From: Verrucomicrobia bacterium GWF2_51_19
Lineage (GTDB): Bacteria; Verrucomicrobiota; Verrucomicrobiia; Opitutales; UBA12508
DNA: 64,000 nucleotides
NCBI GenBank assembly: GCA_001831095.1
Contig: MIDP01000013.1
Span: 2,364 to 66,363, forward strand
Reading direction: 5' to 3'
The position numbers and the translations under genes are program-made. Position 1 is the stretch's first letter. Every line of letters starts with the position of its first letter. The notes beneath the pieces were generated by a model that saw nothing but the letters and a program-made list of their open reading frames with translations, was not told where the DNA came from and ran no database searches. This document shows positions 504 to 56,234 of the stretch, in pieces.

Positions 504-1027
504 TGCGACTGCTAAAACGCAAACTCTCACTGCGCGAAAAAGGGCTCTTGACGGCTTGTGTCTGGGGCATCCTCTGTTTGTGGTTGAGCAGCGAGCTCAA
601 GGGCTTTCGAGAGCTGAATGGCCAAGTTGACACCATCGAAAAGGCACTGAAAAAACAGTCTGTTTGGATTGCCAACGAGGGGCTCATCCGCGAACGCTTA
701 CAGCAGTTGGTCAGCCGCCTCGACATCAAGAAGTCCCTCGACCGCAACACCTTCGCTGGACGCGTCGACGAATTGGCCGCAAAGAGCGCCATTCACTACA
801 CCCTCGAGTCCCCTAAAGAACAAGCAGGCGACGTCTTTGACATCTTTTCGCTGAAGTTGCGCTTTCGGGATTGCGACCTGCCTAGCCTCATTGCTTTCGA
901 AAAGGCCATCTACGACGAATCGCCCTACATGAGCGTTGAGTCGCTGCAGATGAAGCCAAACCCAACCAACCCGCAGTTGCTGAACGGCACCTTTGCTATA
1001 CTTGGAATGAAATTGACACTAAAATGA
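503..1027 (+). CDS. PilO/GspM-like inner-membrane assembly protein
   Basis: 174 aa with an N-terminal TM helix (LLTACVWGILCLWL), a coiled-coil and a C-terminal ferredoxin-like region. It sits between the PilN-like gene and the secretin, and its stop overlaps the secretin start. Confidence 0.5.
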   Translation: MRLLKRKLSLREKGLLTACVWGILCLWLSSELKGFRELNGQVDTIEKALKKQSVWIANEGLIRERLQQLVSRLDIKKSLDRNTFAGRVDELAAKSAIHYTLESPKEQAGDVFDIFSLKLRFRDCDLPSLIAFEKAIYDESPYMSVESLQMKPNPTNPQLLNGTFAILGMKLTLK

Positions 1028-3174
1028 AACGACTATTCCTATTTTTGATCCCCTTATTGACATACGCGATGCCCGCGGCCGATATCGTCAAAGACATGGA
1101 CGATGAGCCCGTATTCTTGGACAAGGATAACTTTATCGCGCCCGAAAAAGAGTCAGAGACCATTGACTCCATTGTACTCGTCGACGAGTCTGCCCAACAG
1201 ACCCTCGCCCTCTTGGAAAAGTTGACTGGAAAGATCATTCTGCCGCAACAAAATATTCCCAAAGTCAGGATCAACCTCAACATCAACACGCCCCTCAGCA
1301 AGGAAGAGGCCATTCTCGCCATCGAGAGCATTCTCGTCCTCAACGGTATCGCCATCACCGAAATGGGCGACAAGTTCCTCAAAGCCGTGCCCACCAGCCG
1401 CGTCAAGAGCCAATCCCCGACCTTTTTATCAGAATCGTCACTGCCGCTCGTGTCCAGTGAAAACATTTACACCAAGTTTTTCCGCCTCACCTACCTCTCG
1501 ACAGACGAAATTCGCATGATGCTCGCCCCCTCGATGACACCCGAATCATCGGCCCTCGTGACGCTGCAAAAATCAAACTCCATTCTCGTCACCGACACGC
1601 TGTCCAACATTCAGCGCGTGGAACAGATTTTGGAAAAGATCGACAAGCCGGCAGACGTCCGCGAAGAGGTGCTCTTTTACGCCCTCAAAAACACCAGCGC
1701 CAAGGACCTCGTTCAACACCTCACACGCTTTCAAAACAACATTTTTGGAAAGTACCTGAAGGGCAACACCAGCTTTGAGGCCGATGATCGCACCAACCAA
1801 CTCATCGTCATCACGCCGCCCGGCCACAAGCCCCTCATCGATCAAATTGTAAAAGGTCTCGACCTCGATATTCAACCGCTGACAAAGAGCGAGGTGTTTT
1901 ACATCAAGCACGCCCAGGCCAAAGACCTCTGTGCCGTCCTCAAGCGCGTCATTACGAGCCAGCAGGACAAAGAAGAAAAGAAAGATGCCGACAAAAAAGA
2001 TGCCGACAAAAAAGATCAAGATGACCAGTCGAAAACGCCCGCACAAACCTTCTTAGATCGCCTGCGCCAAATGCGCGAACAGCAGCAAAAACCAACGACT
2101 GGCTCAAGTGAAAGCGCCCAAAAGTTCAGCAAAGACTTCTCTCTCGACTTCGACGAGCGCAGCAACGCCATCATCGTTTTCGGTAACCCAACAGACATCC
2201 GCCAAATCAAAGAGCTGATTGATAAAGTTGACATCGTCCTGCCCCAGGTGCGCGTCCAGGTGATCATTGCCGAGGTAAAGCTCACCAACGACCAGGTCTC
2301 AGGCCTGCAGTCCTTCGGCATCGGGTATAATGAAAAATACAATGAATCGACGACAGGAACTACCATTCTGAAAAACGGCGAAAAGATTTATTTGAAAAAC
2401 ATTTCGAGCGCCATCACGACAAAACTATCGTCTCCATTTACATTGAATGGCTCCCTCCAAGATTTTGCCATCGATACTGTCTTTCAAAAAGCTCAAGAAA
2501 ATCAGAATATTCAACTCTTGTCGGCACCGATGATTCTAACGACCCACAATCAAGAGGCCTCTGTAACTATCGGAGAAAAACGTCCTATTGTTGAGGCCGT
2601 TGATACCAACAAAACTGATACCAACAACGTTACACAACGCGTTAAATACCAAGATATCGGCATTACATTGAAGATAAAGCCACTCATAGGTTCCAATGGC
2701 ACCGTTCAACTCAAAATTGATCAGACAGTCGATAACATATCTGGTTCGACTACTATCAATAATAATTCTCAGCCGATTATCACAAACAGGACGACTTCTT
2801 CCTTTGTCAGTGTCAATGACCGAGACACAATTGTTCTGTCCGGTCTACAGGAGCGTACCAACACGAAGACAAAATCAAAAGTTTTCCTCCTCGGATATTT
2901 GCCTTTCTTGGGCAGCGCGCTTTTTTCTCCAGAGAGTGACGTTGTAGAAACTCGTGAACTGATCCTCTTTATCCGTCCGCAAGTGGTCTACATGCCGAGT
3001 GATGCCGTTCCGCATGCCAAACAGATGATGGAGCAGATTGATGGCGGGAAGGACATTCAAACTTTCACAGATACCGGTAAGTTCCCACTGGAAAAGACGG
3101 AGCCAGAAAAGGGCAGCAAAGCGACGAGCCGCACAGAAAAGTTGTACAACAAAAAGATGGATGAAAGTAAATGA
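1024..3174 (+). CDS. Secretin (PilQ/GspD family outer-membrane channel)
   Basis: Signal peptide and repeated NolW-like N domains. The C-terminal secretin domain begins VLPQVRVQVIIAEVKL and ends LPFLGSALFS...RELILFIRPQVV. A low-complexity KKDADKKDADKKDQDD linker is present. Confidence 0.9.
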   Translation: MKRLFLFLIPLLTYAMPAADIVKDMDDEPVFLDKDNFIAPEKESETIDSIVLVDESAQQTLALLEKLTGKIILPQQNIPKVRINLNINTPLSKEEAILAIESILVLNGIAITEMGDKFLKAVPTSRVKSQSPTFLSESSLPLVSSENIYTKFFRLTYLSTDEIRMMLAPSMTPESSALVTLQKSNSILVTDTLSNIQRVEQILEKIDKPADVREEVLFYALKNTSAKDLVQHLTRFQNNIFGKYLKGNTSFEADDRTNQLIVITPPGHKPLIDQIVKGLDLDIQPLTKSEVFYIKHAQAKDLCAVLKRVITSQQDKEEKKDADKKDADKKDQDDQSKTPAQTFLDRLRQMREQQQKPTTGSSESAQKFSKDFSLDFDERSNAIIVFGNPTDIRQIKELIDKVDIVLPQVRVQVIIAEVKLTNDQVSGLQSFGIGYNEKYNESTTGTTILKNGEKIYLKNISSAITTKLSSPFTLNGSLQDFAIDTVFQKAQENQNIQLLSAPMILTTHNQEASVTIGEKRPIVEAVDTNKTDTNNVTQRVKYQDIGITLKIKPLIGSNGTVQLKIDQTVDNISGSTTINNNSQPIITNRTTSSFVSVNDRDTIVLSGLQERTNTKTKSKVFLLGYLPFLGSALFSPESDVVETRELILFIRPQVVYMPSDAVPHAKQMMEQIDGGKDIQTFTDTGKFPLEKTEPEKGSKATSRTEKLYNKKMDESK
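1981..2010 (+). repeat. 15-bp tandem duplication (aaagatgccgacaaa x2) inside the secretin linker
   Basis: Direct reading; encodes KDADK KDADK. Confidence 0.9.
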
Positions 3175-3834: not shown

Positions 3835-3958
3835 AAAGACAGATGCAAAATGGCTCTATAGCAAGGCCCGAGAAGCGAGGGCGACAGGAGCGTACGTTTG
3901 TACGTGACTTAGCCCGAACGACGAGAACGACGCTAGAGACCATTTTGCATCTGTCTTT
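3835..3958 (+). repeat. Family A structured intergenic element, copy A1
   Basis: A perfect 19-bp outer inverted repeat (aaagacagatgcaaaatgg / ccattttgcatctgtcttt) encloses the conserved core ctatagcaaggcccgag..gcgacaggagcgtacgtttgtacgtgacttagcccgaacgacgagaac..gctagag. The element supplies the last 8 codons and the stop of mrdA. Confidence 0.9.
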
Positions 3959-5834
3959 GCAATAGCCTTGCAAACTCCTTAAAAATCGCCCTGGCGACGG
4001 GGCCAGCAGTTGTTCCGCCGTAGAAGAGGTCGCGGTCGTCGCGCTCCTCAATTGCAACAGCAACCGCGATTTGTGGGTCTTCGATCGGTGCAAAGCCGAT
4101 GAACCACGCGATGTGCAAAAAGCGCTTGACGCCCGCCACGCGGATTTGCGCCGTGCCTGTCTTTGCGGCTATACGGAATCCTTGAACGGAGACTGATTTT
4201 GCTGTGCCTTCCGTCGAGGCCATTTCCATACCTTCGAGAAGCGCCTTCATGTGTTCGGGACGCAGGCCAATAGCCTCTCCGCCGTGTTTAGGTTGTTTGT
4301 GGGTGTCGTGGACGAGCGTTGGTTGCGTACGCGTCTCTCCTCGAGCCAATGAGGCAACAAAGCAGGCCATTTGCAGCGGAGTTACCCGCGTAAACCCCTG
4401 TCCCTGTACCATATTGGCTGTATCACCACCCGTCCAAGAGCCCAGATCGCGGCGCTTTTTCCATTGCTTGTCGGGAATGAGACTGCTTGGCGTCTCTGGC
4501 AACTCGATGTGCGTGACCTGATTTAGGCCAAAACGCCTGGCCTCGTCGGCAAGCATCTCGTGGCCACACTTCAGCGCGTGTTCGATGAAAAATGGATTGC
4601 AACTGAGCGAAATCGCGTGGCGGAAGTCGAGTTGCCCGTGTCCCCAAAGGTTGTTGCAGTGAAACTGGCGGTTGCCAACCATTATCGAGCCAACACAGTT
4701 GTGGACGTCATGCGGGTCGAGGTAACCGTTGCGAAGCATCGCGATCGATGCAATCACCTTAAACGGCGACCCCGGCGGATAGAGCCCCTGCGTCGCACGA
4801 TTCACCCAGGCGCCCCTTTCGGTAATCGCGTCGTAGGTAGCTTGCGGAAGATAGGGCGTGAAGTCGTTGAGGTCGAAGTCTGGCTTGCTCGCCAACACAA
4901 GGACCTCGCCCGTTCGCACGTCGAGCGCCACCGCCGCACCACGATTGTCGCCCAGGGCCATTTCAGCCACTTCTTGGAGGTCGGCATCGAGGCTGCAATA
5001 GAAATCTTTGCCCTGCTCCGGGTGCTTTTTCAACAGCTGTTCGTACTTGTAACCAGACGGGTCGACCAGGCAGACTTCGTACCCGCTGAGGCCCTGCAAA
5101 TGGCTGTCAAAGCGCGCCTCCAGGCCCATCTTGCCCGATTTCCCCTTGATGCTAAAAGTGGTCAAATTCTCGCCCGGCACGCTGTCAGCCGTTTCCGACG
5201 ACGACACGACGTACCCCAAGGTGTGCGCCGCCAGCGAGTCGTAGGGGTAGACGCGGACACTGTCAACGTACACCTGAATTGGGTAACGCACAGGCAATTG
5301 CTCGGTCAGGATCGCATACTCCTGCGGCGTCAAGTCCTCGATCAGCGTCATCGGCAACAACATGTGTTGATAAAAGTGACGCTCCAGCTTTTTGGGATCA
5401 ATCTGGACGTTTTTTTGAAGCAGTGCGTTGATCTTGTCTAAATACTTTTGCAAAACCGCTGCCCGAGCAACACGTTTAATGTCATCACGGTCGACGCGCT
5501 CGTTCTTTTCGCGCTGCTCGCGGACAAGCTGGATGTACCTCTCGGCAAACTCCTTGCGCAACTCCTCCAAATACGCCACAACGCAGAAACGTGGACGATT
5601 GCCCACCAACAATATCCCTTTTCGATCGTAAATATTGCCACGCGTCCCAGGTGTTATCAACCGCCGCATGCTCTGCTGCTGCTCCTTTTCCTCGTAAATC
5701 GACGCCTGTATAAGCTGCCTCCACGCGAGTCCAAAAAACAGCGTAGCAAACGCCACCCCACTCAATAAGTAAAAAAAACGTATGCGCGGCGTGAAACTCC
5801 GGTGAGACTCGAAGGGCTTTTCATCTGCTTTCAT
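3933..5834 (-). CDS. mrdA: Penicillin-binding protein 2 (elongasome transpeptidase)
   Basis: N-terminal TM anchor, PBP dimerisation domain and transpeptidase domain (SPFK, KTGTA motifs). I chose the start at 5834 (MKADEK) because it forms an ATGA overlap with the mreD stop; the ORF-track start is 5858. Confidence 0.9.
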   Translation of the reverse strand: MKADEKPFESHRSFTPRIRFFYLLSGVAFATLFFGLAWRQLIQASIYEEKEQQQSMRRLITPGTRGNIYDRKGILLVGNRPRFCVVAYLEELRKEFAERYIQLVREQREKNERVDRDDIKRVARAAVLQKYLDKINALLQKNVQIDPKKLERHFYQHMLLPMTLIEDLTPQEYAILTEQLPVRYPIQVYVDSVRVYPYDSLAAHTLGYVVSSSETADSVPGENLTTFSIKGKSGKMGLEARFDSHLQGLSGYEVCLVDPSGYKYEQLLKKHPEQGKDFYCSLDADLQEVAEMALGDNRGAAVALDVRTGEVLVLASKPDFDLNDFTPYLPQATYDAITERGAWVNRATQGLYPPGSPFKVIASIAMLRNGYLDPHDVHNCVGSIMVGNRQFHCNNLWGHGQLDFRHAISLSCNPFFIEHALKCGHEMLADEARRFGLNQVTHIELPETPSSLIPDKQWKKRRDLGSWTGGDTANMVQGQGFTRVTPLQMACFVASLARGETRTQPTLVHDTHKQPKHGGEAIGLRPEHMKALLEGMEMASTEGTAKSVSVQGFRIAAKTGTAQIRVAGVKRFLHIAWFIGFAPIEDPQIAVAVAIEERDDRDLFYGGTTAGPVARAIFKEFARLLQRQMQNGL

Positions 5835-6345: not shown

Positions 6346-6444
6346 CGGGAAACCCTTTTTATAGAATAAAAAGTGTTTCCCGAACCCTTCCCAAAAACAC
6401 TTTTTTAGCGAAACATAAAAATACTTCGTATTTTTTTATTTCGC
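6346..6444 (-). repeat. Family B two-hairpin element, copy B1
   Basis: Read on the minus strand, hairpin 2 (6408-6444, gcgaaa..tttcgc type) comes first, then hairpin 1 (6346-6382, gggaaac..gtttccc type). The mreD ATG follows 15 nt later. Confidence 0.85.
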
Positions 6445-6480: not shown

Positions 6481-6604
6481 AAGGCCGCTTCAAGATGCGC
6501 CTATAGCCAGGCCCGAGGAGTGAGGGCGACAGGAGCCTACTTAAGGTAGGTGACTTAGCCCGATCGACGAGAACGCCGCTAGAGGCGCATCTTGAAGCGG
6601 CCTT
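6481..6604 (+). repeat. Family A element, copy A2
   Basis: Perfect 20-bp outer inverted repeat aaggccgcttcaagatgcgc / gcgcatcttgaagcggcctt. The core is the same as A1, but the central hairpin is cctac-ttaag-gtagg. Confidence 0.9.
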
Positions 6605-6850
6605 TTGCAGCGTTAAAAATAGATGCAAAAATGCGGCTTGGCGCGAGCACGATTCGGCCGTAGCGGCATGGCGATCCATCCGGCTTCTCCAATTTTTTTG
6701 CGAAATATAAAAATGCATGCATTTTTGTGTTTCGCTTTAAAAGTTTTTTGGAGAGGGGGTCGGGGAGAGACTTTTTTTCAAAAAAGTCTTTCCCCGTGGC
6801 CAGTCGGCGGAGCGAGAAACGCATTTTGGCGCTATTTTCAACGCTGTCTT
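6605..6850 (+). repeat. Family T2 element, copy T2-1, interrupted by a family B copy
   Basis: The left part (6605-6692, ..aaaaatagatgcaaaaatgcggcttggcgcgagcacgattcggccgtagcg..) and right part (6796-6850, ..ggccagtcggcggagcgagaaacgcattttggcgctattttcaacgctgtctt) align with the uninterrupted copies. B2 lies between them. The right end overlaps the PP2C stop codon. Confidence 0.8.
6700..6795 (+). repeat. Family B element, copy B2 (nested inside T2-1)
   Basis: Hairpin 2 at 6700-6735 (gcgaaatataaaaatgcatgcatttttgtgtttcgc) and hairpin 1 at 6762-6795 (ggggagagactttttttcaaaaaagtctttcccc). Confidence 0.85.
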
Positions 6851-7577
6851 AAAAGAAGAGGGCGATGGCAGAGAGATTATCCGGAGCCTCCTTCTCGTAG
6901 GCAATTTTTTTAATTTCTGCGAGTAGATGTTCGGGTGTATCGTAGGCCTTCATGAGCATGCCCATGCGGTGTTCGCTGATAGTTTTGGTAACGCCGTCTG
7001 TGTAAAGGAGAAGTTTATCGCCAGGGAGAAGCTCGTGTTCATAGAAGTCAATATCGAGGCTTGGACGTTGGCCGAGGCAGCGTGTGAGTGTGTGGTAGAG
7101 CTGTTCGGGAATGGAGGTGTATTTGCGTTTTTCCTCAGAGAGTGACTGCCAAATCTCCTGGGCGACTGTGTGGTCTCGAGTGAGCTGTTGGATTTCGCGG
7201 TTGCGGAAGAGGTAGATACCGCTGTCACCGGCGTGGCCGATTGAGAAGAAGTTTTCGCGGAAGGACAACGCTGTCAAAGTTGTGGCGATGCCGTACTCGG
7301 GGTAGAGTTTTTTGCCTTCGTCGAAGATTTTTTTATTGATGTCGTTGAAAATGATGTCCCAATCGACGGGCCGGCCTGGCAAGGAATTGGCCTTGAAGAG
7401 TCCAGCGAGGTCACGGACTGCAATTTGGCTGGCGACGTCACCATCGGGCAGGCCTCCGAGGCCATCGGCGACGGCATAGAGATGTAAGTCATTGTCAATG
7501 AGAAAAGAGTCATCGTTTTTCTCTCGCCCCAGGCCGATATCCGTAAAGCCGGCAACCTTAAATTTTATCTCGGACAT
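6849..7577 (-). CDS. PP2C-family Ser/Thr protein phosphatase
   Basis: 242 aa with PP2C motifs (GREKNDDSF, AVADGLGG, DGVT). Confidence 0.85.
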   Translation of the reverse strand: MSEIKFKVAGFTDIGLGREKNDDSFLIDNDLHLYAVADGLGGLPDGDVASQIAVRDLAGLFKANSLPGRPVDWDIIFNDINKKIFDEGKKLYPEYGIATTLTALSFRENFFSIGHAGDSGIYLFRNREIQQLTRDHTVAQEIWQSLSEEKRKYTSIPEQLYHTLTRCLGQRPSLDIDFYEHELLPGDKLLLYTDGVTKTISEHRMGMLMKAYDTPEHLLAEIKKIAYEKEAPDNLSAIALFF

Positions 7578-8488: not shown

Positions 8489-8550
8489 GTATATCGCCGA
8501 TCTCGCCCTCACCGTCAATCAAAATACAGCTCCCCAGCTCCTCTTTAGTT

Positions 8551-8680
8551 AAAGACTGATGCAAAATAGATGCAAAAATGTGGCTTTGCGCGAGTATGAC
8601 CCGGCGTAGCGTACATAGACGTACGTGAGCAAGTCAACGGAGCGCGAAACGCGTTTTGGCGCTATTTTGACTCTGTCTTT
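8551..8680 (+). repeat. Family T2 element, copy T2-2 (complete)
   Basis: aaagactgatgcaaaatag..atgcaaaaatgtggctttgcgcgag..ccggcgtagcgtacatagacgtacgtgagc..ggagcgcgaaacgcgttttggcgctattttgactctgtcttt. Confidence 0.85.
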
Positions 8681-8698
8681 AGGTAGTGTTTTTGATAA

Positions 8699-8736
8699 GG
8701 GGCCTAACCCTCTTTATTGTGTAAAAAGGGTTCCCC
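8699..8736 (-). terminator. B-hairpin-1-like imperfect palindrome downstream of gap (candidate terminator)
   Basis: ggggcctaaccctcttt..aaaaagggttcccc lies 18 nt after the gap stop. The stem is imperfect and there is no clean U-tract. Confidence 0.35.
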
Positions 8737-8753
8737 GGCGATTCTGATCGATT

Positions 8754-9830
<1,077 letters not shown>

Positions 9831-12470: not shown

Positions 12471-15093
<2,623 letters not shown>

Positions 15094-15095
<2 letters not shown>

Positions 15096-15222
15096 AGAAC
15101 GATAAAAATGGCACCCAGCTTCGTTTCGCGCTCCGCCGACTGCCTCACGTACCTCTATGTACGCTACGGCAGATCGTGCTCGCGCAAAGCCAAACCTGTG
15201 CATCCATTTTTTATCGTTCTTC
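15094..15222 (-). repeat. Family T2 element, copy T2-3 (complete, inverted)
   Basis: The outer arms gaagaacgataaaaatgg / ccattttttatcgttcttc pair with a single-nt bulge. The inner stem is ctgcc..ggcag around gtagcgtac-ataga-ggtacgtga. The left end overlaps the gyrB TGA. Confidence 0.85.
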
Positions 15223-15269
15223 AGCTCCAATGATGACCAGTATACCAATACAAATAATCAATGAATTTT

Positions 15270-15368
15270 GCGAAATAGAAAAATACGCAGTATTTTTATG
15301 TTTCGCATAAAAAAGTGTTTTTAGGAAGGGTCTGGGAAACCTTTTTTATTCTATAAAAAGGGTTTCCC
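15270..15368 (+). repeat. Family B element, copy B4
   Basis: Hairpin 2 at 15270-15306 and hairpin 1 at 15334-15368; the gyrA ATG follows 16 nt later. Confidence 0.85.
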
Positions 15369-22105: not shown

Positions 22106-24247
22106 TTAATCGCCAAAAAAGCCCTTAAATAAGCCAAAAAAGCCCTTAAATAAGCCACCCGCTAGATTACCTGGAGCTGCAAGTACTGACGTGATCGTCG
22201 CGGTGTTTTTAACAACGCCATTGACGTTTTCAAGCAAGTCTTTGACTCGTTTTTGATCTTCCTCACCGAGGACGTTTAATACGCCTTGGTTATTGGCTTT
22301 TTCGGTGATGGCCTCTATATTTTTAACGGACGTTTGGAGATCATCGAGAAGGCTCGCCCCCTTTTCGCCGCCCAATAAGCCAATGACACCGTTGTCTTTG
22401 ATAAAATTAACCAATTTTTCAGCTATCTGGATCGAGCTTGAAACCTTTGCGCGCAACTGATTCCAGCCATCTTGAGTCGTATCGACAGTCTTTTTTAAGA
22501 TTTCAGTTACTACTGTTGTGATGTTATTTATATTTTCAGTGACAGATTGGACAAAAAGTTTTTGGGCTTCTTCTGATTTTACGACTTCAAACAGATCTTT
22601 GTCTTTAAATTTTTCTATAATGCTTTTGACGGCTTGAGTACGAAATTGTACGATTTTCCCTTTATCGCCCTCCAACTCTATATTTCGTTCGCATTGTATG
22701 GCTAGCTGATTGTAGAAGATATCGAGTGGTGTGAATTCTTCATTCCCTAATAAAAACAATTCTGGTTTCTTTTCGAGAAATAATTTAAGACTGTCTAAAA
22801 AGACATTACACTCAGTCTCATCTGTAATCCAAGCAGCTTGATGCATGCAGGCGTTTAGAAAAGTCTTTCCGATAGTCTTTCCGGAATCCATCTGTGTATC
22901 TAGGACAGACCAATCGAGCTTTTGCAAAAAACTGCGGAGTTTGTGGAGTGTGCCTTTTTGCAGGAAAGGCAAGATTTTATTAGAATCTGTGGCGCAGAGT
23001 AGTTGTGGATTTTTTTCAATGAGTTTTCCGATAATGCGATCGCCTTCCTCGCCTGTGCTGACCAATAAAGTGGCTAGATGCAGAAGTGTTTTTTCGTTGT
23101 CGATTACTTTCCCATTCTCGTCGACTTTCTCATCGAAACGAGTGTTAATGCCCTCAGGCAAGCGTTCGATAAGCGTGTCGAGAATGGCCATGTGTGCATC
23201 CGTCGCAAAAGCAAACTTCATCCAAAATGCGGCATCCTCCTCATTGGTTATTTTCTCTGGAAGTATGGCCTGAAGCGTTTCCACGTTGCTCGACGCCAAT
23301 GCTATATCGACAAAGGGAGCGATGTCTTTAGGCATTACATTTTTATTAACCAACATGGCTTTAACGAGGTCAACGTTTCCAGTGCTGATGGCCACTGCCA
23401 TGGCACTGTCGCCTGGAAGTTGAAGGCCAACATCCGCGTTTTTATCGAGTAACAACAGCGCCACTTTGGTATTGCAAAGGGCCGTAGCGGTGTAGAGTGG
23501 CGTAAAGCCATCCTTGGATGTCGCATGGATATTGACTCCTTTTGCGAGCAAACAATTGAATAACGCTTTAGTCTTGTCGTTTTCTGTGTCGTTTTCTGGA
23601 AGGCAACAAAGGAGGTGAATAGGCGCAAAGCCTTTCTCGTCTTGTTCTGACAAGATATCCTTGTCCAATGCATCTAGAAATGACACATTACCAGCTTCTA
23701 TAGCCTTGTGGGCGAGCGTTTTACGTTCTGAATCGTTGGCGTTTTCAACGATGGCATTGACTATCTTAGGATCTATGCTGGTGTTCTTCAAACACGCGTT
23801 GATAGCGCTCTCGAAAGAGAATACCTTTTGTTGTTCCGGTGTCATCGAACCACGTTTTTCTAAAACCTTTTTAGCAAGTTCCGAATCATTCTCTTTTATA
23901 GCGAAGTCGAGAAAGGCGGAATTTACATAGCCTGCATCCAGGGCTTTTTCGATGAACTTTTTGGAAAGGTTGTGTTGACTGATCGCGCCCAAAATGCCTT
24001 TTTCGATCACGTCGCCCGACCGTACTTTACGCCGGCTGATGGGCGTCATCGCTGCATCCGAAGTGACGATGGCCGACCAGCCTTTCGCGCGTGCGTAGAG
24101 GTTAAATATGGCATTGGCCATCCAATTTCCCTTATCTCGCACGATGACGATGGATCGCTTGTTGTCTAAAAAGCAGACCTTTTCTTTGGCCAACAAATTT
24201 TCCTGAATGGTACCAAAATTCTCAGGGGTTTGGTCGAGTTTTAACAT
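22106..24247 (-). CDS. Ankyrin-repeat protein (713 aa) with a helical C-terminal region and a duplicated GLFKGFF tail
   Basis: Ankyrin consensus segments (GFAPIHLLC..LLAKGVNIHATSKDGFTPLYTATA..LLLDKNADV..GDSAMAVAISTGNVDLVKAML). AAGGAG Shine-Dalgarno 7 nt before the ATG, which lies 12 nt after the rpoN stop. Visibly more A/T-rich than the flanking genes. Confidence 0.85.
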   Translation of the reverse strand: MLKLDQTPENFGTIQENLLAKEKVCFLDNKRSIVIVRDKGNWMANAIFNLYARAKGWSAIVTSDAAMTPISRRKVRSGDVIEKGILGAISQHNLSKKFIEKALDAGYVNSAFLDFAIKENDSELAKKVLEKRGSMTPEQQKVFSFESAINACLKNTSIDPKIVNAIVENANDSERKTLAHKAIEAGNVSFLDALDKDILSEQDEKGFAPIHLLCCLPENDTENDKTKALFNCLLAKGVNIHATSKDGFTPLYTATALCNTKVALLLLDKNADVGLQLPGDSAMAVAISTGNVDLVKAMLVNKNVMPKDIAPFVDIALASSNVETLQAILPEKITNEEDAAFWMKFAFATDAHMAILDTLIERLPEGINTRFDEKVDENGKVIDNEKTLLHLATLLVSTGEEGDRIIGKLIEKNPQLLCATDSNKILPFLQKGTLHKLRSFLQKLDWSVLDTQMDSGKTIGKTFLNACMHQAAWITDETECNVFLDSLKLFLEKKPELFLLGNEEFTPLDIFYNQLAIQCERNIELEGDKGKIVQFRTQAVKSIIEKFKDKDLFEVVKSEEAQKLFVQSVTENINNITTVVTEILKKTVDTTQDGWNQLRAKVSSSIQIAEKLVNFIKDNGVIGLLGGEKGASLLDDLQTSVKNIEAITEKANNQGVLNVLGEEDQKRVKDLLENVNGVVKNTATITSVLAAPGNLAGGLFKGFFGLFKGFFGD
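22112..22153 (-). repeat. Perfect 21-bp tandem duplication encoding LFKGFFG x2 at the C-terminus of the ankyrin protein
   Basis: gccaaaaaagcccttaaataa x2, read directly. Confidence 0.95.
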
Positions 24248-25718: not shown

Positions 25719-25842
25719 AAAGACCATTGAAAAATGCCTTATAGCGGCGTTCTCGTCGTTCGGGCTAAGTCACCTACCTTAAGTAGGCTCCTGTCGCCCT
25801 CGCTCCTCGGGCCTTGCTATAAGCCATTTTTCAACGGTCTTT
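25719..25842 (-). repeat. Family A element, copy A3 (inverted)
   Basis: The outer arms aaagaccattgaaaaatgcc / gccatttttcaacggtcttt pair with two mismatches. The core is the reverse complement of A1/A2 with the cctac..gtagg central hairpin. The element begins 5 nt from the rpoN ATG. Confidence 0.9.
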
Positions 25843-25857
25843 CCTTTCTTTAAAATA

Positions 25858-26838
25858 TCATATCATATCGGAACGCGTGGTCAGCCCGCTGGCCTTGTAC
25901 TTTTCAGGACTGATGTAATCCTTCAGGTATTCAGCCAATTTTTCATTGGTCGGGCCATAACCATCGCCGTAAATGTAGAGCTCGAGCGCGTTGAGCATTT
26001 CTTCTGCATTCTGATAACGCTCTTCGCGGTCGCGCGTCAAGGCTTTTTTCAAAATCACGTGGAGGCGATCATCGATCTCTGGGCGCACCTTCGGATAGTC
26101 CGGCAGAGGTTTTTCCAAAATATTTTGAATGGTCTGTTCAGGATCCTCATCGGCAAATATGTTTTCACCCAATAACAGCTCTGAGAGTACAATGCCGCAT
26201 GGAAAGATGTCGGCCCGCTCGTCCGTGATCTCTCGCCGCGCCTGTTCTGGAGACAGGTACTCATCTTTACCAGCAATCACCTTGCCTTCCTTGTTGTACA
26301 TCAAGTTGAGGGCCTTGGCTATGCCGAAATCGGTGAGCTTGACGTCGCCCTCCAAGCTGAGCATGATGTTTTTGGGGTTGACGTCGCGGTGGACGATGCC
26401 GAGAAGCTCTCCGTTGGTATTGCGTTTTTTGTGCGCGTAAGCCAGGCCGCGGCAGAGTCTCGAAACGATAAAGACAGCGATGTCAATGGGCACTCGGGCC
26501 TTTTTTTCCAGATGAAAGACCATAAACTCGTCCAAGTTGATCCCGTTAACGTACTCCATGACCATGAAATACTGCTGTTCGGTGTTTTTCCCGAGGTTGT
26601 AAATCTGGACGATATTGGTGTGGATCAAGTCTGCAACGAGCTTTCCCTCTCCAATAAAATTGTCGCGGAAGGGCTTGATGGACGAAAATTCTTCCCGAAT
26701 GACTTTGAGCGCCACCGTCTTTTCAAACAAGCCGGCCCCACGCTGAATCGCTTTGTAGACGGAGCCCATGCCGCCCTCTGCAATCAATTCGAGAATTTCG
26801 TACTCAACCGTATTGCTGAATTGGAAACCAACATTCAT
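25858..26838 (-). CDS. Hanks-type Ser/Thr protein kinase (kinase domain only)
   Basis: Gly-loop GGMGSVY, VALKVI, catalytic loop HRDVNPKN (Asn at the usual Lys position), DFG and SPE motifs. No TM helix or sensor domain. Confidence 0.9.
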
Positions 26839-26979: not shown

Positions 26980-27678
26980 ATGCACAAAGTCAAAAAAAGT
27001 TTTAAGGTGTCCTCTTTTCAACTGTTGAACGCGATCGAAAAGTCGGTCATGGACGACATCCTCCTCGATCCCCATTTCGCCATTGGGAGGTTTGAATGCC
27101 AACGCATGGTGAACTTTGGCGAGGACGAGGCCAAGGCCACATTTATTTTTACTCCCGATGGCAGTACAGAGTGCGACACGATTGGAGAAATGCAGATCGA
27201 ATGCCTCGCAAAGGAGCAATACGAGTACGTCTACGAGGTGCGGCTCGCATTCTTCAAAATCGACAAACAGAAGCAAATTTCCATGTTGCTCTCTTCAGAC
27301 GAGTCAATTGACACTGAAGTCTTTAAAGTGGCCACAAACGTCAAAAGCTTTATCGCCAAGAGCTTTGCCGATCAAATTGGCGAAGTGATTATTCCAGACT
27401 TTTCAGCGCCCGTCGAGGACCTTTCCAATTTTGACCCAACAGCTAAACCGACTACACCCGCGGCCAAGAAGTTTTCTGTCCACACGCGTCCAGAAGACCT
27501 ACTCAAGGGCCTCGACGATGCGCCACCGGCTCAATCTGCACCGACAGTCGCCGCGGATGAAGACTTTGTGAAGAGCCTCCAGGCACAGTTGAATCAACCA
27601 ACAGCGCCGGCCGCGGATGAGGATTTCGTAAAAAGTCTGCAAGCAGAGATCAGCGGCCAACCCAAGGCAACTGAGTGA
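26980..27678 (+). CDS. Hypothetical protein (232 aa) with a duplicated AADEDFVKSLQA peptide motif
   Basis: GGAG Shine-Dalgarno before the ATG. Globular N-terminal ~140 aa, then a Pro/Ala-rich tail carrying two motif copies. 4-nt overlap with the next gene. Confidence 0.6.
   Translation: MHKVKKSFKVSSFQLLNAIEKSVMDDILLDPHFAIGRFECQRMVNFGEDEAKATFIFTPDGSTECDTIGEMQIECLAKEQYEYVYEVRLAFFKIDKQKQISMLLSSDESIDTEVFKVATNVKSFIAKSFADQIGEVIIPDFSAPVEDLSNFDPTAKPTTPAAKKFSVHTRPEDLLKGLDDAPPAQSAPTVAADEDFVKSLQAQLNQPTAPAADEDFVKSLQAEISGQPKATE
27550..27648 (+). repeat. Two 39-nt copies encoding AADEDFVKSLQAQ/E, differing almost only at synonymous sites
   Basis: Copy 1 at 27550-27588 and copy 2 at 27610-27648. Differences: gaa/gag, gac/gat, ttt/ttc, gtg/gta, aag/aaa, agc/agt, ctc/ctg, cag/caa. 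Confidence 0.85.
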
Positions 27679-51150: not shown

Positions 51151-53466
51151 ATGCGAAAATGGAGAATAATGAACCTTTTTATGGAGACAGCGAGCGTCAT
51201 ACGAGACCTATCAATAGTGTTGGCGACAGCCGGCATTGTGGCGATAGCATTTTCATTTCTGCGCCTGCCGGTGATGTTGGGTTACATTTTCAGCGGACTA
51301 GTCATTGGGCCAAACATTTCCAACGGAATTGTCATACAGAACGAGGCGACGATCCGGCAATTGAGCGAATTGGGCGTAATTTTTCTAATGTTTTACATCG
51401 GCCTCGAGTTTGACCTCCGCAAGCTGAGATCGCTGATGGGGCCGTCGTTGTTGTCGGTCGTGTTGCAATCGATCTGCATGTGCTTTTTGGGACTGTTTAT
51501 CGCGCCGCTCTTGGGGTGGTCTGGCCTCAACGGTTTTTTCCTCGGCGGGCTATTGGCAATCAGTTCGACCATGATAACCATCCCCATTCTCCGCGATTCC
51601 AATGCCCTCCAGAGCAATTACGCGCAATGGACCATCGGCATTCTGATTCTGGAAGACATTGTCGCCATTCTCTTATTGGTCGTGTTGGCCGGTGTGGCAG
51701 TGACGGGCCGTTTCGCCTGGGATGACGTCGTTCAAGTGACGTTCTTTGTCGGCATTTTCGTGGTCATGGTGTTTTTCATAGGCCGTCTGCTGGCCCCATG
51801 GATGGTGCGCGTCCTGGACAAGATTGGCAAAGTCGACATCTTGACCATCGCCGTCATCGGATTTGTGCTGGGCATTGGTCAGCTCGCCCAGCAGTTTTCG
51901 CTCGCACTGGGGGCCTTTTTAGCGGGATCCATCCTCTCTCAGACGCTTCTGGCGGAAAAAATTGAGGCCGTCACGGAGCCCTTTCGCAACGTCTTTTCGG
52001 CCGTTTTTTTTGTGACCGTCGGCATGCTGATTCAGCCAAACTTGCTGATTGCTTACTGGAAGATCATTCTGCTTTTGACAGCCCTGGTGGTCATTGGAAA
52101 GATCGTGACGTGCTGGCTGGGCCTGTTTTTGAGTGGGCAACAGTCAAAGACGGCCTTTCTGGCATCCGTTTCCAAGGCGCAAATTGGCGAGTTCAGCTTC
52201 GTCATCGCGACGTTGGGGCAGTCATTTGGCGTCACGGATTCGGGCCTGATGGCGGTGGCGGTCGGTGTTTCACTTGGAACGATCACCGTCGTGACGCTAC
52301 TAACCCCTTTTGCTGATCCGATCTTTGAGAGCTTTGCCAAACGGACGCCCAAGGCAATGCAATTGTGGGGCGCGCATTACCACAAGTTCCTCGAAATACT
52401 TCAAATACGGCTGACTAAGTGGTCTCTCCTCAAGCTGATCTACAAGCCATTGGGCCAAATTCTCGTTTATTTCTTCTTGCTGAACGGCATTGTTTGGCTT
52501 GCCTCGTTTTTCACTCGCACCATATCCGCCTCGCCCATCTGCACGGGACACACGCTCGCAATGAAATCGACGTTGTGGGTTGTTGCGGCCGTCATTTCGT
52601 TGCCATTTCTCACTGGCGTCATCTGCAACATCAACGTCATTCTCATGATATTTACAGAGTTCGCCTTTCCCGCAACGTCGGTGCTCATGCGTGGACGCGT
52701 GCGCAACTGGCTCCATTCGATGGTTCTGATTGTAGCCATTTTGAGCTTTGGGCTCATCTTTCTCTCCGCAGCCGCAGCTCACCTGCCATCAGGAATCGCG
52801 TTGACCTTCCTTCTGCTCTTGACGCTCTGCCTCGCCTTCATCTTTTGGAAGTCCTTTATCCGCCTCAACAGCCGCATCGAGTACCTCTTTCTGAAAAGCT
52901 TCAGCACGCAGACCATCAACGAAGAACTCCAACGCCGTCAAAAGGCCCTTGAACACCTTGCATCGAGGCGCCCCTGGGACGTCTCCACAGCCACGTTGCA
53001 CATTCCCAAACACTCCTTCGCCGTCGGCAAGCGCATACTCGACCTCGACCTCCGCAAACAGACCGGGGCAACCATCATCGGCATCGCGCGCAACCGTTAC
53101 ATTCACTACGAGCCGAGCCCTGAAACGCCACTCTTCCCGGACGACAAGCTCATCGTTCTCGGAGACAAGAAACAGATTGAGTGCGCCGAGGCCTTTCTTT
53201 CCCAAGAGGCTGAACAAGCGGCGCCGGAAGGCAGCTACTCTTTTGACTTTGCCCAAGTTTGCCTGTCGGTCAACTCTCCCTTGAAAAACGAAACCCTCGC
53301 CGGGGCTCGCATTCGGCAACAATTCGGCGTCAACGTTGTCGGCATTCAAAGAGGGCCTGAACGCATCACAACCTTGCGCCCAGAATTCATTTTAAAGGCC
53401 AACGACGTCCTCCTCGTCGTCGGCAGCACTCACGCGTTGAAAGCATTTCAGGAAAGTAATGGATGA
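51151..53466 (+). CDS. CPA2 (Kef-type) cation:proton antiporter with two C-terminal RCK_C/TrkA-C domains
   Basis: 12-13 TM Na/H-exchanger-like domain followed by two TrkA-C repeats (..GKRILDLDLRKQTGATIIGI.. and ..LAGARIRQQFGVNVVGI..). The start may instead be at 51169 or 51181. Confidence 0.85.
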   Translation: MRKWRIMNLFMETASVIRDLSIVLATAGIVAIAFSFLRLPVMLGYIFSGLVIGPNISNGIVIQNEATIRQLSELGVIFLMFYIGLEFDLRKLRSLMGPSLLSVVLQSICMCFLGLFIAPLLGWSGLNGFFLGGLLAISSTMITIPILRDSNALQSNYAQWTIGILILEDIVAILLLVVLAGVAVTGRFAWDDVVQVTFFVGIFVVMVFFIGRLLAPWMVRVLDKIGKVDILTIAVIGFVLGIGQLAQQFSLALGAFLAGSILSQTLLAEKIEAVTEPFRNVFSAVFFVTVGMLIQPNLLIAYWKIILLLTALVVIGKIVTCWLGLFLSGQQSKTAFLASVSKAQIGEFSFVIATLGQSFGVTDSGLMAVAVGVSLGTITVVTLLTPFADPIFESFAKRTPKAMQLWGAHYHKFLEILQIRLTKWSLLKLIYKPLGQILVYFFLLNGIVWLASFFTRTISASPICTGHTLAMKSTLWVVAAVISLPFLTGVICNINVILMIFTEFAFPATSVLMRGRVRNWLHSMVLIVAILSFGLIFLSAAAAHLPSGIALTFLLLLTLCLAFIFWKSFIRLNSRIEYLFLKSFSTQTINEELQRRQKALEHLASRRPWDVSTATLHIPKHSFAVGKRILDLDLRKQTGATIIGIARNRYIHYEPSPETPLFPDDKLIVLGDKKQIECAEAFLSQEAEQAAPEGSYSFDFAQVCLSVNSPLKNETLAGARIRQQFGVNVVGIQRGPERITTLRPEFILKANDVLLVVGSTHALKAFQESNG

Positions 53467-53524
53467 CAATTACCTATGCAAAATACCGTGAAAGCTCTTT
53501 TCGCGCTATTTTGCTACGTGTCTT
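53467..53524 (-). repeat. Miniature T2-related element (terminal arms + short core)
   Basis: ..acctatgcaaaataccgtgaaagctcttttcgcgctattttgctacgtgtctt starts 1 nt after the antiporter stop. The arms pair only imperfectly. Confidence 0.4.
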
Positions 53525-53600: not shown

Positions 53601-54437
53601 ATGTTTGTCATGAAAAAGAGGCTAATCAGTACAGTGTGTTTGTGGTTGATCGTGTTGGGCGTGATTTTATTTTTGGGACCAACCGCAGCTGTATTTTTGT
53701 TGGCAGTGTTGTCGGCTTTGACACAAAATGAGCTGTATAAGCTGCAGAAGCGCATGGGATATAAGCCATTACGTCGATTGGGACTGACGTTGGGATTTTT
53801 GCTTCCCCTGATCGTTTGGTTCTCAGACAACCCACACGCCGGCAGCGATTTCTTTGTTTTCAGCCTGATTTTGATAAGCCTGTCGATCTTGTTTCAAGAC
53901 ATTCGACACGGCATGGAATCCTTGCTCATTCCGACCTTGTTTGGCTTTGTCTACATCCCGTTCATGTTGCAATATTACGTCCAAATCCTGAAGGACTGGG
54001 ATACGCTCGGTAACACCACTGGCGGGCTCTTTCTCATCGTTTGGCTGATCGCGGTGGCCAAGTTTACCGACGTCGGTGGCCTCCTAGTCGGCAATGCCAT
54101 TGGACGACATAAGTTGGCTCCTCACATAAGCCCCAAAAAGACGTGGGAGGGTGTTGTCGGAGGAACCGCCCTGGCTACGGCTGTCGGATTGGCCTTAGCA
54201 GTCGTCTTTCGCCCATGGATGCCACCTTCCTTTACCCTCGCAAAGTCGGTAATCATCGCAATACCCATATCAGCGGCGTCCATTTTATCTGACCTCATCG
54301 AATCGGCCATCAAACGCTTTTCAGGCCAAAAAGACTCAGGCCACGTCATTCCGGGCATCGGTGGCGCCTTTGACCTCGTCGACAGCCTTGTTTTGACTGC
54401 TCCATTGGGTTATCTTCTCTTCAAGTACTTCATTTAA
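53601..54437 (+). CDS. cdsA: Phosphatidate cytidylyltransferase
   Basis: Polytopic membrane protein with a CdsA-signature-like segment SAIKRFSGQKDSGHVIPGIGGAFDLVDS (non-canonical at several positions). Confidence 0.85.
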   Translation: MFVMKKRLISTVCLWLIVLGVILFLGPTAAVFLLAVLSALTQNELYKLQKRMGYKPLRRLGLTLGFLLPLIVWFSDNPHAGSDFFVFSLILISLSILFQDIRHGMESLLIPTLFGFVYIPFMLQYYVQILKDWDTLGNTTGGLFLIVWLIAVAKFTDVGGLLVGNAIGRHKLAPHISPKKTWEGVVGGTALATAVGLALAVVFRPWMPPSFTLAKSVIIAIPISAASILSDLIESAIKRFSGQKDSGHVIPGIGGAFDLVDSLVLTAPLGYLLFKYFI

Positions 54438-54554
54438 GGCCTGGGAAAGGGCCTATAGCGGCGTTCTCGGCGTTCGGGCTAAGTCACGTACCACCCGTAC
54501 GGCTCCTGTCACCCTCACGCCTCGGGCCTTGCTATAGACCCTTTCCCAGGCCTT
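54436..54554 (-). repeat. Family A element, copy A4 (inverted)
   Basis: The outer stem aaggcctgggaaagggcctatagc / gctatagaccctttcccaggcctt forms 24 bp with one mismatch. The central hairpin is cgtac-gggtg-gtacg. The left end overlaps the cdsA TAA. Confidence 0.9.
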
Positions 54555-54627
54555 AAAGGCTCGAAGAAAAATGGCAGAATCGTGCGCAGCGCGAAACGCA
54601 TTTTGGCGCCATTTTACAACGGTCTTT
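54555..54627 (+). repeat. Internally deleted T2 element
   Basis: aaaggctcgaagaaaaatgg..cagaatcgtgcgcagcgcgaaacgcattttggcgccattttacaacggtcttt. The right half matches T2-1 and T2-2. Confidence 0.6.
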
Positions 54628-55440: not shown

Positions 55441-55654
55441 GCCGCGGCATGGCGCACAGATCTTTGTATATCAATAACTTACGAACTGCAAAGACCGTTG
55501 GAAAATGGCCGGCAAGGCCGTTTTTTCAAAACTAAGTGATTAATGCGAAAAGACCGTTGAAAAATGGATGCAAAAATGTGGCTTTGCGCGAGTACGATCT
55601 GCCGTAGCGTACATTTGTGCACAGGTCTTAGTCTATCAATAACTTACAAATGAA
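55441..55654 (+). repeat. Cluster of truncated repeat pieces
   Basis: Contents: a T2 central fragment; a solo terminal arm at 55490; a truncated T2-4 at 55549-55629; and a duplicated tatcaataacttac spacer at 55469-55483 and 55634-55648. The terminal arm aaagaccgttg(g/a)aaaatgg occurs in direct orientation at 55490, 55549 and 55655. The unit cacagRtctt..tatcaataacttacRaa..aaagaccgttgRaaaatgg occurs twice. Confidence 0.75.
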
Positions 55655-55778
55655 AAAGACCGTTGAAAAATGGCTCTATAGCAAGGCCCGAGGAGCGAGG
55701 GCGACAGGAGCGTACGTTGGTACGTGACTTAGCCCGAACGACGAGAACGCCGCTAGAGGACATTTTTCAACGGTCTTT
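55655..55778 (+). repeat. Family A element, copy A5
   Basis: The outer arms aaagaccgttgaaaaatgg / acatttttcaacggtcttt pair at 18 of 19 positions. The core is nearly identical to A1. Confidence 0.9.
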
Positions 55779-55790
55779 TCGGTCTTTTAT

Positions 55791-55818
55791 TTGACAGATT
55801 GCAAATAGGGTGTACAAT
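55791..55818 (+). promoter_or_regulatory. Near-consensus sigma-70-type promoter (TTGACA-16 nt-TACAAT) in front of the T3SS-like module
   Basis: TTGACA at 55791-55796 and TACAAT at 55813-55818. The ATG of the first ORF is at 55830, so the implied leader is only a few nt. Identified by sequence match only. Confidence 0.5.
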
Positions 55819-55829
55819 AAGGTTATACC

Positions 55830-56222
55830 ATGGAACTACTGAAAAAAGAACCGGCAAACGGGAATGTGCAAAAAGGCTATGAGGCCCTGCAAAAGCAGTT
55901 TGATTTTGCAGATAAAATGCAGTCTTTGCTTAAAAAACAGGGCTACACGACGGGTACAACCGACGAGATTTTTAAAAAGTTGGAAGCTAAGGGCCTTTCA
56001 AAGGAGTCGCGCCAAAAGATCCGTGACACCATAAAAGCGATCGAGCAAGACCCTTTGCTTGAGCCAACCGGCATCTTGGAAGACTTAGAATCGAAGACAG
56101 ACAAATTGTCACTTTTCTTGGTAAAAATATCCAAAGAACAATTACGAAAAGAGCAACTTCCACAAAAACCAGCTTCGCAAGGCACTCTGACAAACGCTTT
56201 GCGCGGCCGTAACATGATTTGA
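55830..56222 (+). CDS. Hypothetical small helical protein (130 aa), occupying the LcrG-equivalent position
   Basis: Charged, predicted helical, no TM. First gene of the module. The LcrG comparison rests on position only. Confidence 0.5.
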   Translation: MELLKKEPANGNVQKGYEALQKQFDFADKMQSLLKKQGYTTGTTDEIFKKLEAKGLSKESRQKIRDTIKAIEQDPLLEPTGILEDLESKTDKLSLFLVKISKEQLRKEQLPQKPASQGTLTNALRGRNMI

Positions 56223-56234
56223 GAGGACACTTTT

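Follow-up and report, generated by a model that had tools for sequence, protein, structure and literature searches.

The locus and its repeats

The DNA analysed here (the window) is a stretch of 64 000 nucleotides from the verrucomicrobial genome GWF2_51_19. It carries gyrB/gyrA, gap, holB and tpiA together with genes for a secretin, a type III chaperone of the SycD/LcrH type, an ankyrin protein, a Ser/Thr kinase and a PP2C phosphatase. Of its approximately 17 intergenic gaps of at least 120 nt, 10 are occupied by a copy of one of two repeat families, A and T2. The T2 copy at 8551-8680 is found between gap (− strand, stop codon at 8754) and holB (− strand, start codon at 8518). The copies, derivatives and associated modules recognized in the window are the following.

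8551-8680, + strand: full-length T2 with short apex, inner-arm subfamily 1 (GATGCAAAAATGTGG.. / ..CGCGTTTTGGCGC); covariance model match 8548-8682, 118.5 bits
15094-15222, − strand: full-length T2 with perfect 19-nt outer arms GAAGAACGATAAAAAATGG / CCATTTTTATCGTTCTTC; model match 15092-15225, 129.6 bits
57951-58143, − strand: T2 variant b, the expanded form; model match 57950-58146, 79.1 bits
6605-6850, + strand: T2 variant c, the interrupted form; found by BLAST, with an insert shared with other loci
55549-55629, + strand: truncated T2, in which a left half ending in the apical loop (55549-55614) is followed by a remnant of the right outer arm (55615-55629); found by BLAST
53472-53524, − strand: T2 deletion derivative, outer arms plus ..GAAAGCTCTTTTCGCGC, core lost; found by BLAST
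54584-54627, + strand: T2 right-half derivative (GCGCAGCGCGAAACGCATTTTGGCGCCATTTTACAACGGTCTTT); 14.9 bits, E = 0.16 with the T2 model
3835-3958, + strand: family A copy, with the outer stem and apex of T2 and other inner arms
6481-6604, + strand: family A copy adjoining T2 variant c; its outer arms AAGGCCGCTTCAAGATGCG / CGCATCTTGAAGCGGCCTT covary and its apex, GCCTAC/GTAGGT, is compensated
25719-25842, − strand: family A copy ending 4 nt before the start codon (25714) of a sigma-54 gene
54436-54554, − strand: family A copy, outer arms AAGGCCTGGGAAAGGG / CCCTTTCCCAGGCCTT
55655-55778, + strand: family A copy 5' of a near-consensus promoter (55791-55818) and of the ATG at 55830
58167-58282, + strand: degenerate A-like copy directly 5' of the ATG at 58284
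58144-58166, + strand: linker module (ATGGATCAATATTTTACGAAAGG) between T2(−) and A(+), with relatives at 55465-55489 and 55630-55654
55490-55519, + strand: truncated left arm of an A-type element (AAAGACCGTTGGAAAATGGCCGGCAAGGCC), the same variant being full-length at locus L013, 6383

The preliminary description of this DNA had distinguished T2 as a second family, with the ends and central hairpin of family A and with different internal arms, and this distinction was borne out both by direct reading and by a covariance model built from 58 aligned T2 copies. The seven T2 copies and derivatives that it listed were all recovered at approximately the positions given there by BLAST, repeat finding and the model. 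With 8541-8690 as the query, BLAST returned 15221-15122 (81% identity over 100 nt) and 55549-55614 (88%, 66 nt), with further matches at 6616-6665 plus 6795-6850, 54585-54615, 58114-58084 and 53479-53507, and a search for repeats in the window led to the same families. The copy at 55549-55629 had been read as a truncated T2, which is correct for the left half; the right-outer-arm remnant has to be added to it.

The similarity of the ends is not an effect of A/T composition, since the terminal arm AAAGACNNNTGNAAAAT (at most one mismatch) occurs 15 times in the window against 0.19 expected, a count that none of 100 shuffles reached. The central AGCGTAC-N6-GTACGTGA motif was found twice, with 0.03 occurrences expected by chance.

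Structure of the T2 hairpin

In the alignment of the 58 copies T2 forms a single long imperfect hairpin of 46 pairs. Paired cells amount to 97.7%, against 88.3% in shuffles, and compensatory double changes were detected at 24 of the 46 pairs (12.5 expected) and in 242 cells (65.5 expected), values reached in none of 500 shuffles; in slid controls the double changes were at most 13 pairs and 33 cells. Stems are conserved or covary, whereas loops vary freely.

The outer stem, for which a consensus AAAGACCnnnGnAAAATGG can be written for T2 and A together, is flanked by a short A-run and a short T-run (AAAGACC..GGTCTTT). These ends had initially been described as shared termini. They are not fixed terminal inverted repeats: the outer arms differ from copy to copy, in some cases being replaced by a wholly different sequence (AAGACCGATGCAAAATG, AAGACCGGCGTAAAATGG, AAGTCCGGCGCAAAATAG and TTAAATGGCAGCAGAGAAAGGG are examples), yet they stay complementary within each copy. 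Two main subfamilies of inner arms exist, in each of which the left and right arms are matched (GATGCAAAAATGTGG with CGCATTTTGGCGC, GTCAAAGCTTGG with CGAGCTTTCACGGC). The CTGCC/GGCAG pairing, previously interpreted as an extra stem of one copy (T2-3), belongs to the T2 consensus and covaries.

At the apex, the consensus is CGTAG-CGTAC-loop-GTACG-TGAG, that is, a stem-loop tagged by GTAG, as anticipated in the earlier comparison with REP sequences; GGAG takes the place of GTAG in family A. The tag precedes the apical stem in all five window T2 copies that have kept their centre. Its presence in all 58 aligned copies reflects ascertainment, the search pattern having contained CGTAGCG, and the invariance of GGCTTTGCGCGAG and CGTAGCG is likewise due in part to the pattern that required them. 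Neither the conserved right half nor the difference between conserved stems and variable loops is affected in this way. Decayed T2 copies obtained as by-catch carry ATAG or GTAT instead of GTAG.

What T2 and A have in common is the outer arm together with the AGCGTAC..GTACGTGA apex, the inner arms of one family being unrelated to those of the other; consistently, the T2 model also matches the family A copies over their full length at 28-39 bits. Outer-arm covariation is found in family A too, along with a compensated apex, GCGTAC/GTACGT or GCCTAC/GTAGGT. The two families thus constitute one lineage-specific superfamily of intergenic imperfect palindromes of approximately 125-135 nt.

The two strands of T2 are not equivalent. 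On the + strand of the 58 copies 250 cells hold G·T and only 22 hold A·C, and four wobble positions are G·T in nearly every copy. With RNA parameters the + strand is predicted to be the more stable one in 57 of 58 copies (mean, −75.0 versus −63.1 kcal/mol), with DNA parameters in 56 of them, and the model scores it at approximately 150 bits, against approximately 60 for the − strand. For the copy at 8551-8680 the folding energies are −53.3 kcal/mol (+ strand) and −37.9 kcal/mol (− strand), and for that at 15094-15222 they are −67 and −50.3 kcal/mol for the better and the other strand, respectively.

A coding role of T2 was discarded on the basis of its short open reading frames, which lie in different frames in the two inner-arm subfamilies. 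In the window no Rfam 15 family is matched at gathering level, the only sub-threshold match being a snoRNA (16 bits, E = 0.16).

Apex variants and free-standing modules

The two copies described earlier as interrupted and expanded proved to be recurrent structural variants. In the interrupted copy at 6605-6850 (variant c) an insert of approximately 150 nt, which contains the palindrome GCGAAATATAAAAATGCATGCATTTTTGTGTTTCGC as well as a hairpin (GGGGAGAGAC..GTCTTTCCCC), replaces the apex, and the same insert (140-152 nt) is present at six further loci (L008/L028, L032, L039, L044, L045). In the expanded copy at 57951-58143 (variant b) a string of small hairpins of approximately 100 nt stands in place of the apical hairpin and of part of the right inner arm, a form found again at three further loci (L026, L027 and L039). 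In both variants the left arm continues to CCGTAGCG and the central hairpin is replaced. In all, three recurrent apex variants of T2 were distinguished, in addition to the copy at 55549, which is truncated in the apical loop. By taking into account also the apex common to A and T2, these forms indicate that cores are exchanged, expanded or lost at the apex, in agreement with the exchangeable cores proposed in the preliminary description.

The insert of variant b consists of five small hairpins, namely GCAGGGC..GCCCTGC, GGATAC..GTATCC, CCACTTTT..AAAAGTGG, GGATGC..GCATCC and GGGGGCC..GCCCCC; the last of them also occurs outside T2 (L007, approx. 4026-4060). The insert has no Rfam match. The insert of variant c includes (6700-6735) a palindromic module, GCGAAAyATAAAAATnC..GnATTTTTnTrTTTCGC, which is free-standing at 6408-6444 and 15270-15306.

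Distribution and host lineage

The T2 core pattern gave 81 exact matches at 54 metagenome loci, all of them from two JGI data sets that represent one population (99.9-100% identity). No match was obtained in 185 579 genomes of GTDB species representatives or in viral contigs; in the latter a looser pattern for the central hairpin yielded chance matches only, and the covariance model found nothing in 30 verrucomicrobial loci identified through gyrB. In approximately 0.54 Mb of redundant data 135 T2 and 79 A fragments were counted, corresponding, after de-duplication, to 47 different A copies and to approximately 59 different T2 copies of the short form, besides 10 copies of the two longer T2 variants and many decayed ones. 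The window sequence is identical in four independent assemblies (ENA ERZ27254744, GCA_003530575.1, JGI 3300025154 and Logan SRR6482117). T2 is, therefore, a real, very abundant and lineage-specific hairpin repeat of approximately 130 bases, found in one population.

The closest gyrB sequences are those of Opitutales and Puniceicoccaceae metagenome-assembled genomes (MAGs), with only 72-76% amino-acid identity, and the best HolB protein outside this population is 43% identical, values that describe an isolated verrucomicrobial lineage without a close relative for comparison. The secretin, ankyrin-repeat and eukaryote-type Ser/Thr kinase genes, two family-less open reading frames and the SycD/LcrH chaperone gene are distributed over 1024-3174, 22106-24247, 25858-26838, 55830-57950 and 58284-58793. 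Taken together, these genes suggest an Opitutae lineage associated with a host. A polysaccharide-biosynthesis cluster at approximately 28600-51100, encoding glycosyltransferases, heparinase-like proteins, an epimerase, a UDP-sugar dehydrogenase and a flippase, contains no copy of A or T2, though some of its spacers are long enough.

Position relative to genes and possible host functions

The two families follow placement rules that had escaped the preliminary description: T2 is found after stop codons and A before start codons, often in the order T2(−)-linker-A(+). The median distance of T2 from the upstream stop codon is +1 nt, and several open reading frames end 1-24 nt within the element. 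In the window, the gyrB stop codon (TGA, 15093-15095) is overlapped by the end of the T2 copy at 15094-15222, and that of the PP2C gene (6849-7577, − strand) by the right end of variant c; variant b begins directly 3' of the stop codon at 57948-57950, and the derivative at 53472-53524 directly 3' of that at 53464-53466. T2 is located between convergent genes in 23 cases versus 5 between divergent ones (p = 0.0009). A(+) copies precede start codons by a median of 17 nt, often by 1-8 nt, and A has the same orientation as the downstream gene in a ratio of 25:5 (p = 0.0003). A recurrent composite, in which a stop codon is followed by T2(−), a linker (..TTAACAACTTACGAAAGG), A(+) and an ATG, occupies entire spacers.

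These rules bring in an alternative in which T2 is a functional punctuation element of the host, namely a 3'-end hairpin acting as bidirectional terminator, mRNA stabilizer or processing site, and A is a 5'-leader module, both kept by selection, which would be compatible with a selfish origin. The contact of T2 with upstream stop codons, its enrichment between convergent genes, the proximity and co-orientation of A with gene starts and the recurrence of the composite all speak for it, and so do the covariation of paired positions against freely varying loops and the fact that copies are old yet structurally intact. From the reading of the sequence, the A-run and T-run bracket the outer stem as they would in a bidirectional terminator.

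The main argument to the contrary comes from the strands: the better-folding + strand is antisense to the flanking (tandem) genes in a ratio of 31:11 among intact copies (p = 0.003) and of 27:15 among all copies (p = 0.09), and is, therefore, more often the non-transcribed one. (The orientation with respect to GC skew, 44:28, p = 0.08, does not decide the matter.) Furthermore, no long U-tract follows a G+C-rich stem, many copies are truncated, decayed or rearranged, Rfam offers no match, and proximity to stop and start codons would also be expected had the elements filled spacers that were already short. The comparison with an intrinsic terminator cuts both ways: the A-run and T-run bracket the outer stem, but the Ts belong to the stem itself, the hairpin measures approximately 130 nt and a scan for consensus terminators did not call the T2 and A elements. 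On balance, selection for such a role is unlikely to be the primary explanation of T2, but a role at gene ends is a serious rival, and one compatible with a selfish origin.

An extension of the host-function alternative, which is decidedly speculative and considered improbable, is that T2 and A might form a paired, genome-wide system marking gene boundaries, both families being read by one protein through the common outer stem and apical motif. Such a protein, equally conjectural, could be a structure-specific nuclease, an RNA-binding protein or a domesticated HUH enzyme, for which T2 would denote gene ends and A gene starts. The system might then determine where transcripts begin, end or are processed in a compact verrucomicrobium that is probably associated with a host, an idea of the same low likelihood. 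Just as tentatively, selection or intramolecular template-switch correction could preserve the pairing of the outer stem despite the drift of its sequence.

With respect to transcription initiation, no convincing consensus promoter was found inside T2, A or the linker, and the sole strong one is outside the elements. It is a sigma-70 near-consensus (TTGACA-16-TACAAT, 11 of 12 positions) at 55791-55818, ending 12 nt 5' of the ATG at 55830. The start assigned mechanically to the chaperone open reading frame, 58194, falls inside the degenerate A copy at 58167-58282. Counted from there, residue 63 is the first of the chaperone domain, which makes the ATG at 58284 the probable true start.

Evidence on mobility

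That T2 has been copied as a whole unit is indicated by three sets of data. Homology between copies is bounded by (A)AAGAC on one side and by GTCTT(T) on the other. Left inner arms of one subfamily always go with right inner arms of the same subfamily, never with those of the other (columns 30/119, 35/114 and 36/113), and derived features, such as a 4-nt deletion (at least three loci) and an A·G mismatch that recurs in the outer arm, are shared by dispersed loci. The closest two copies at different loci are 94.8% identical and no identical copies exist, hence there is no sign of current activity; the present population is old.

Shared ends with exchangeable cores had led to the suggestion of one mobilization or maintenance mechanism for several cargo types, and the arrangement in T2-3 had been likened to the REP sequences mobilized by RAYTs. 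The absence of a transposase from the window was confirmed, as no transposase, integrase or HUH domain was detected in any of its open reading frames (Pfam, NCBIfam). In approximately 0.46 Mb of DNA of this organism, perhaps a tenth of the genome, there were no multi-copy open reading frames, and no match to Y1/RAYT proteins was obtained with phmmer, using approximate IS200, IS608 and RAYT queries, or with a scan for the HUH..Y motif, which is a weak negative. With no RAYT/Y1 gene in this sample, mobilization by a RAYT is still an analogy. In the sampled DNA, T2 halves were not found to flank cargo of kilobase size, and none of the open reading frames flanked by elements is a transposase candidate. 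No direct repeats indicative of target-site duplication are present at the boundaries of the 58 T2 copies, and TA is found on both sides in approximately 7 of 45 copies, a frequency close to chance.

The comparison of two JGI assemblies, with 48 differences in the approximately 80.6 kb that they share, revealed no gain or loss of a whole element, and a single cluster of differences lies inside one. The latter affects the left inner arm of an A copy, which at the same locus reads GCGCCTATAGCCAGGCCC (L046, 8595-8610) in one assembly and AATTATTGAGTGTTTGC (L055, approx. 4523-4540) in the other. An apparent deletion of 6494-6696 in the NCBI MAG (DPTP01000039.1; L002, 6084-6097) was rejected as a polymorphism because a run of N shows it to be an assembly gap, which corresponds to an A copy and the left part of a T2 copy in the window.

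[quoted passage not shown] Small size, non-coding character, intergenic location, high copy number, the existence of deletion derivatives and ends with a recognizable consensus, as frequent as noted above, are all in line with it. However, the terminal repeats are not fixed but vary by copy with compensation, up to complete replacement, and outer arms that are variable yet self-complementary fit poorly with sequence-specific binding of duplex ends. No insertion sequence with matching ends that could act as parent was found in the approximately 0.46 Mb sampled, target sites are not duplicated, and the strong strand asymmetry would not be expected of an element handled as duplex DNA. A DDE-driven MITE is, thus, very unlikely. 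Correia/NEMIS and RUP elements are MITEs of a size similar to that of T2, with terminal inverted repeats, non-coding and adjacent to genes, to which their ends supply stop codons. T2 differs from them by the lack of TA or other target-site duplications, by its covarying terminal repeats and by the lack of a parent insertion sequence among the sequences found.

Comparison with known palindromic repeats

GTAG-containing REP families with RAYTs have been described in Opitutus terrae and in other phyla, with the GTAG tag by a short stem, frequent G·T pairs, downstream placement with respect to genes and association with RAYTs or with the RAYT-like TIRYTs, whose genes are flanked by long families of terminal inverted repeats (PMC3733652). 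For REPINs, compensatory changes in the hairpin arms have also been described (PMC3116915). T2 resembles these systems in being a high-copy extragenic palindrome with compensatory arm changes and no target-site duplication (PMC3116915), with a hairpin predicted in single-stranded DNA or RNA, the GTAG by a short stem, common G·T pairs (PMC3733652) and placement downstream of genes; moreover, the related genus Opitutus is rich in GTAG REPs. The unpaired GTAG at the end of a stem, observed in the five window copies with a centre, is a feature of REPs, and the apex alone (CGTAG-CGTAC-N4-6-GTACG, approx. 25 nt) has the size of one (approx. 20-40 nt, stem of 5-13 bp), for which the whole T2 (approx. 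130 nt) is too long.

The differences are equally clear. A REPIN is formed by two inverted REPs at its ends, whereas T2 is a single hairpin with one apical GTAG stem-loop, and the inner arms of T2, GGCTTTGCGCGAG / GGAGCGCGAAACG, are not themselves REP hairpins. T2 is conserved centrally and variable outside, the reverse of a REPIN, and has neither a RAYT found for it nor identical 'master' copies. Being far longer than a REP and lacking the doublet, T2 is better regarded as a variant of that kind than as a member of the REP or REPIN classes. The TIRYT-associated families are also long, moderately to highly abundant inverted repeats, perhaps spread by HUH enzymes (PMC3733652), but no TIRYT gene flanked by T2 or A is present in the sampled DNA.

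Other families are similar in architecture. In the BIMEs of enterobacteria, mosaics of palindromic units and linkers fill intergenic spacers, as T2 and A cores, linker and apex inserts do here, but the modules are unrelated in sequence and those of T2/A are nested in a common outer stem instead of lying side by side. ERIC (or IRU) elements are 127-bp imperfect palindromes forming one long hairpin, found in intergenic or transcribed regions across many genera, with longer variants that arise from insertions at fixed internal sites; no mobilizing enzyme is known for them. They are not known to resemble T2 in sequence, and T2 was found in one population only.

A reading of T2 as a structure-specific, single-strand recombination site marking cassettes, like the attC sites of integrons or those of another tyrosine recombinase, appears highly improbable. 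An imperfect palindrome of approximately 130 nt after stop codons, folding asymmetrically with bulges and with conserved ends, is reminiscent of attC. However, the flanked genes are dispersed, essential housekeeping genes (gyrB/gyrA, gap, holB, tpiA, rplS) rather than cassettes in an array, orientation relative to the gene is only 64-74% consistent (27:15 to 31:11), and the ends, read as AAAGAC/GTCTTT, do not match the RYYYAAC/GTTRRRY core sites; no intI or array was seen, and the sole recombinase found is an ordinary xerD-like gene. Finally, chance, low complexity or misassembly can practically be dismissed: although the public MAG contig breaks at the repeats with an N-gap and the Logan contig ends in the copy at 8551-8680, the copies are identical in the four independent assemblies, the motifs are approximately 80-fold enriched over shuffles and the statistics of covariation are strong.

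A proposed origin of T2

The covarying outer arms, the strand asymmetry and the absence of target-site duplications favour a unit whose folded single strand is what is read or selected; the arms, in particular, point to recognition or selection of such a structure and not to the binding of duplex ends by a transposase. The best explanation, in which we place about even confidence, is that T2 is, or was, an old and selfish non-autonomous element of the REP/REPIN type, which would have spread by way of a hairpin intermediate of single-stranded DNA and was perhaps co-opted at gene ends. According to this proposal, T2 would have been copied as a whole unit through a hairpin formed by the + strand and recognized by its structure together with the apical motif. 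The mobilizing enzyme would be encoded elsewhere, a HUH/Y1 nuclease (RAYT- or TIRYT-like) being the leading candidate; by analogy with known systems, a RAYT mechanism is plausible. The apex may have been the point at which cores were exchanged, expanded or truncated. Copies would have persisted in the short spacers at gene ends, with T2 directly after stop codons, where some may have been co-opted as 3'-end hairpins, the current population being the aged remainder of this process.

If this explanation is correct, the family offers a natural experiment on the spread and persistence of palindromic repeats, with approximately 60 or more covarying copies and an identifiable folding strand, and points to a mechanism of single-stranded, structure-read mobilization outside the proteobacterial REP/RAYT models. 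The strands of T2 provide concrete substrates with which candidate HUH enzymes can be assayed, and the placement rules make host functions testable with metatranscriptomes. There are also practical consequences, since the T2/A family breaks short-read assemblies, as seen from the N-gap in the public MAG and from contigs that end inside copies, and causes start codons to be mis-called. The Logan contig, for example, stops at 8567, inside the T2 copy at 8551-8680.

Additional repeats

Three further types of repeat were noted. A third family in the window is a small A/T-rich hairpin, AACCCTTTTTAT..ATAAAAAGGGTT(T)CCC, present at 6351-6381, 8706-8736, 15338-15368 and 61476-61506, which looks like a terminator and often adjoins T2 or A copies. 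A separate non-coding repeat, made of tandem units of approximately 57 nt with 83-85% identity between loci (L056, 9367-9681; L013, 5591-6243; L024, 370-874), is unrelated to T2 and A. Finally, a 60-nt direct repeat (77% identity) is found at 27550-27648, inside the coding region 26980-27678.
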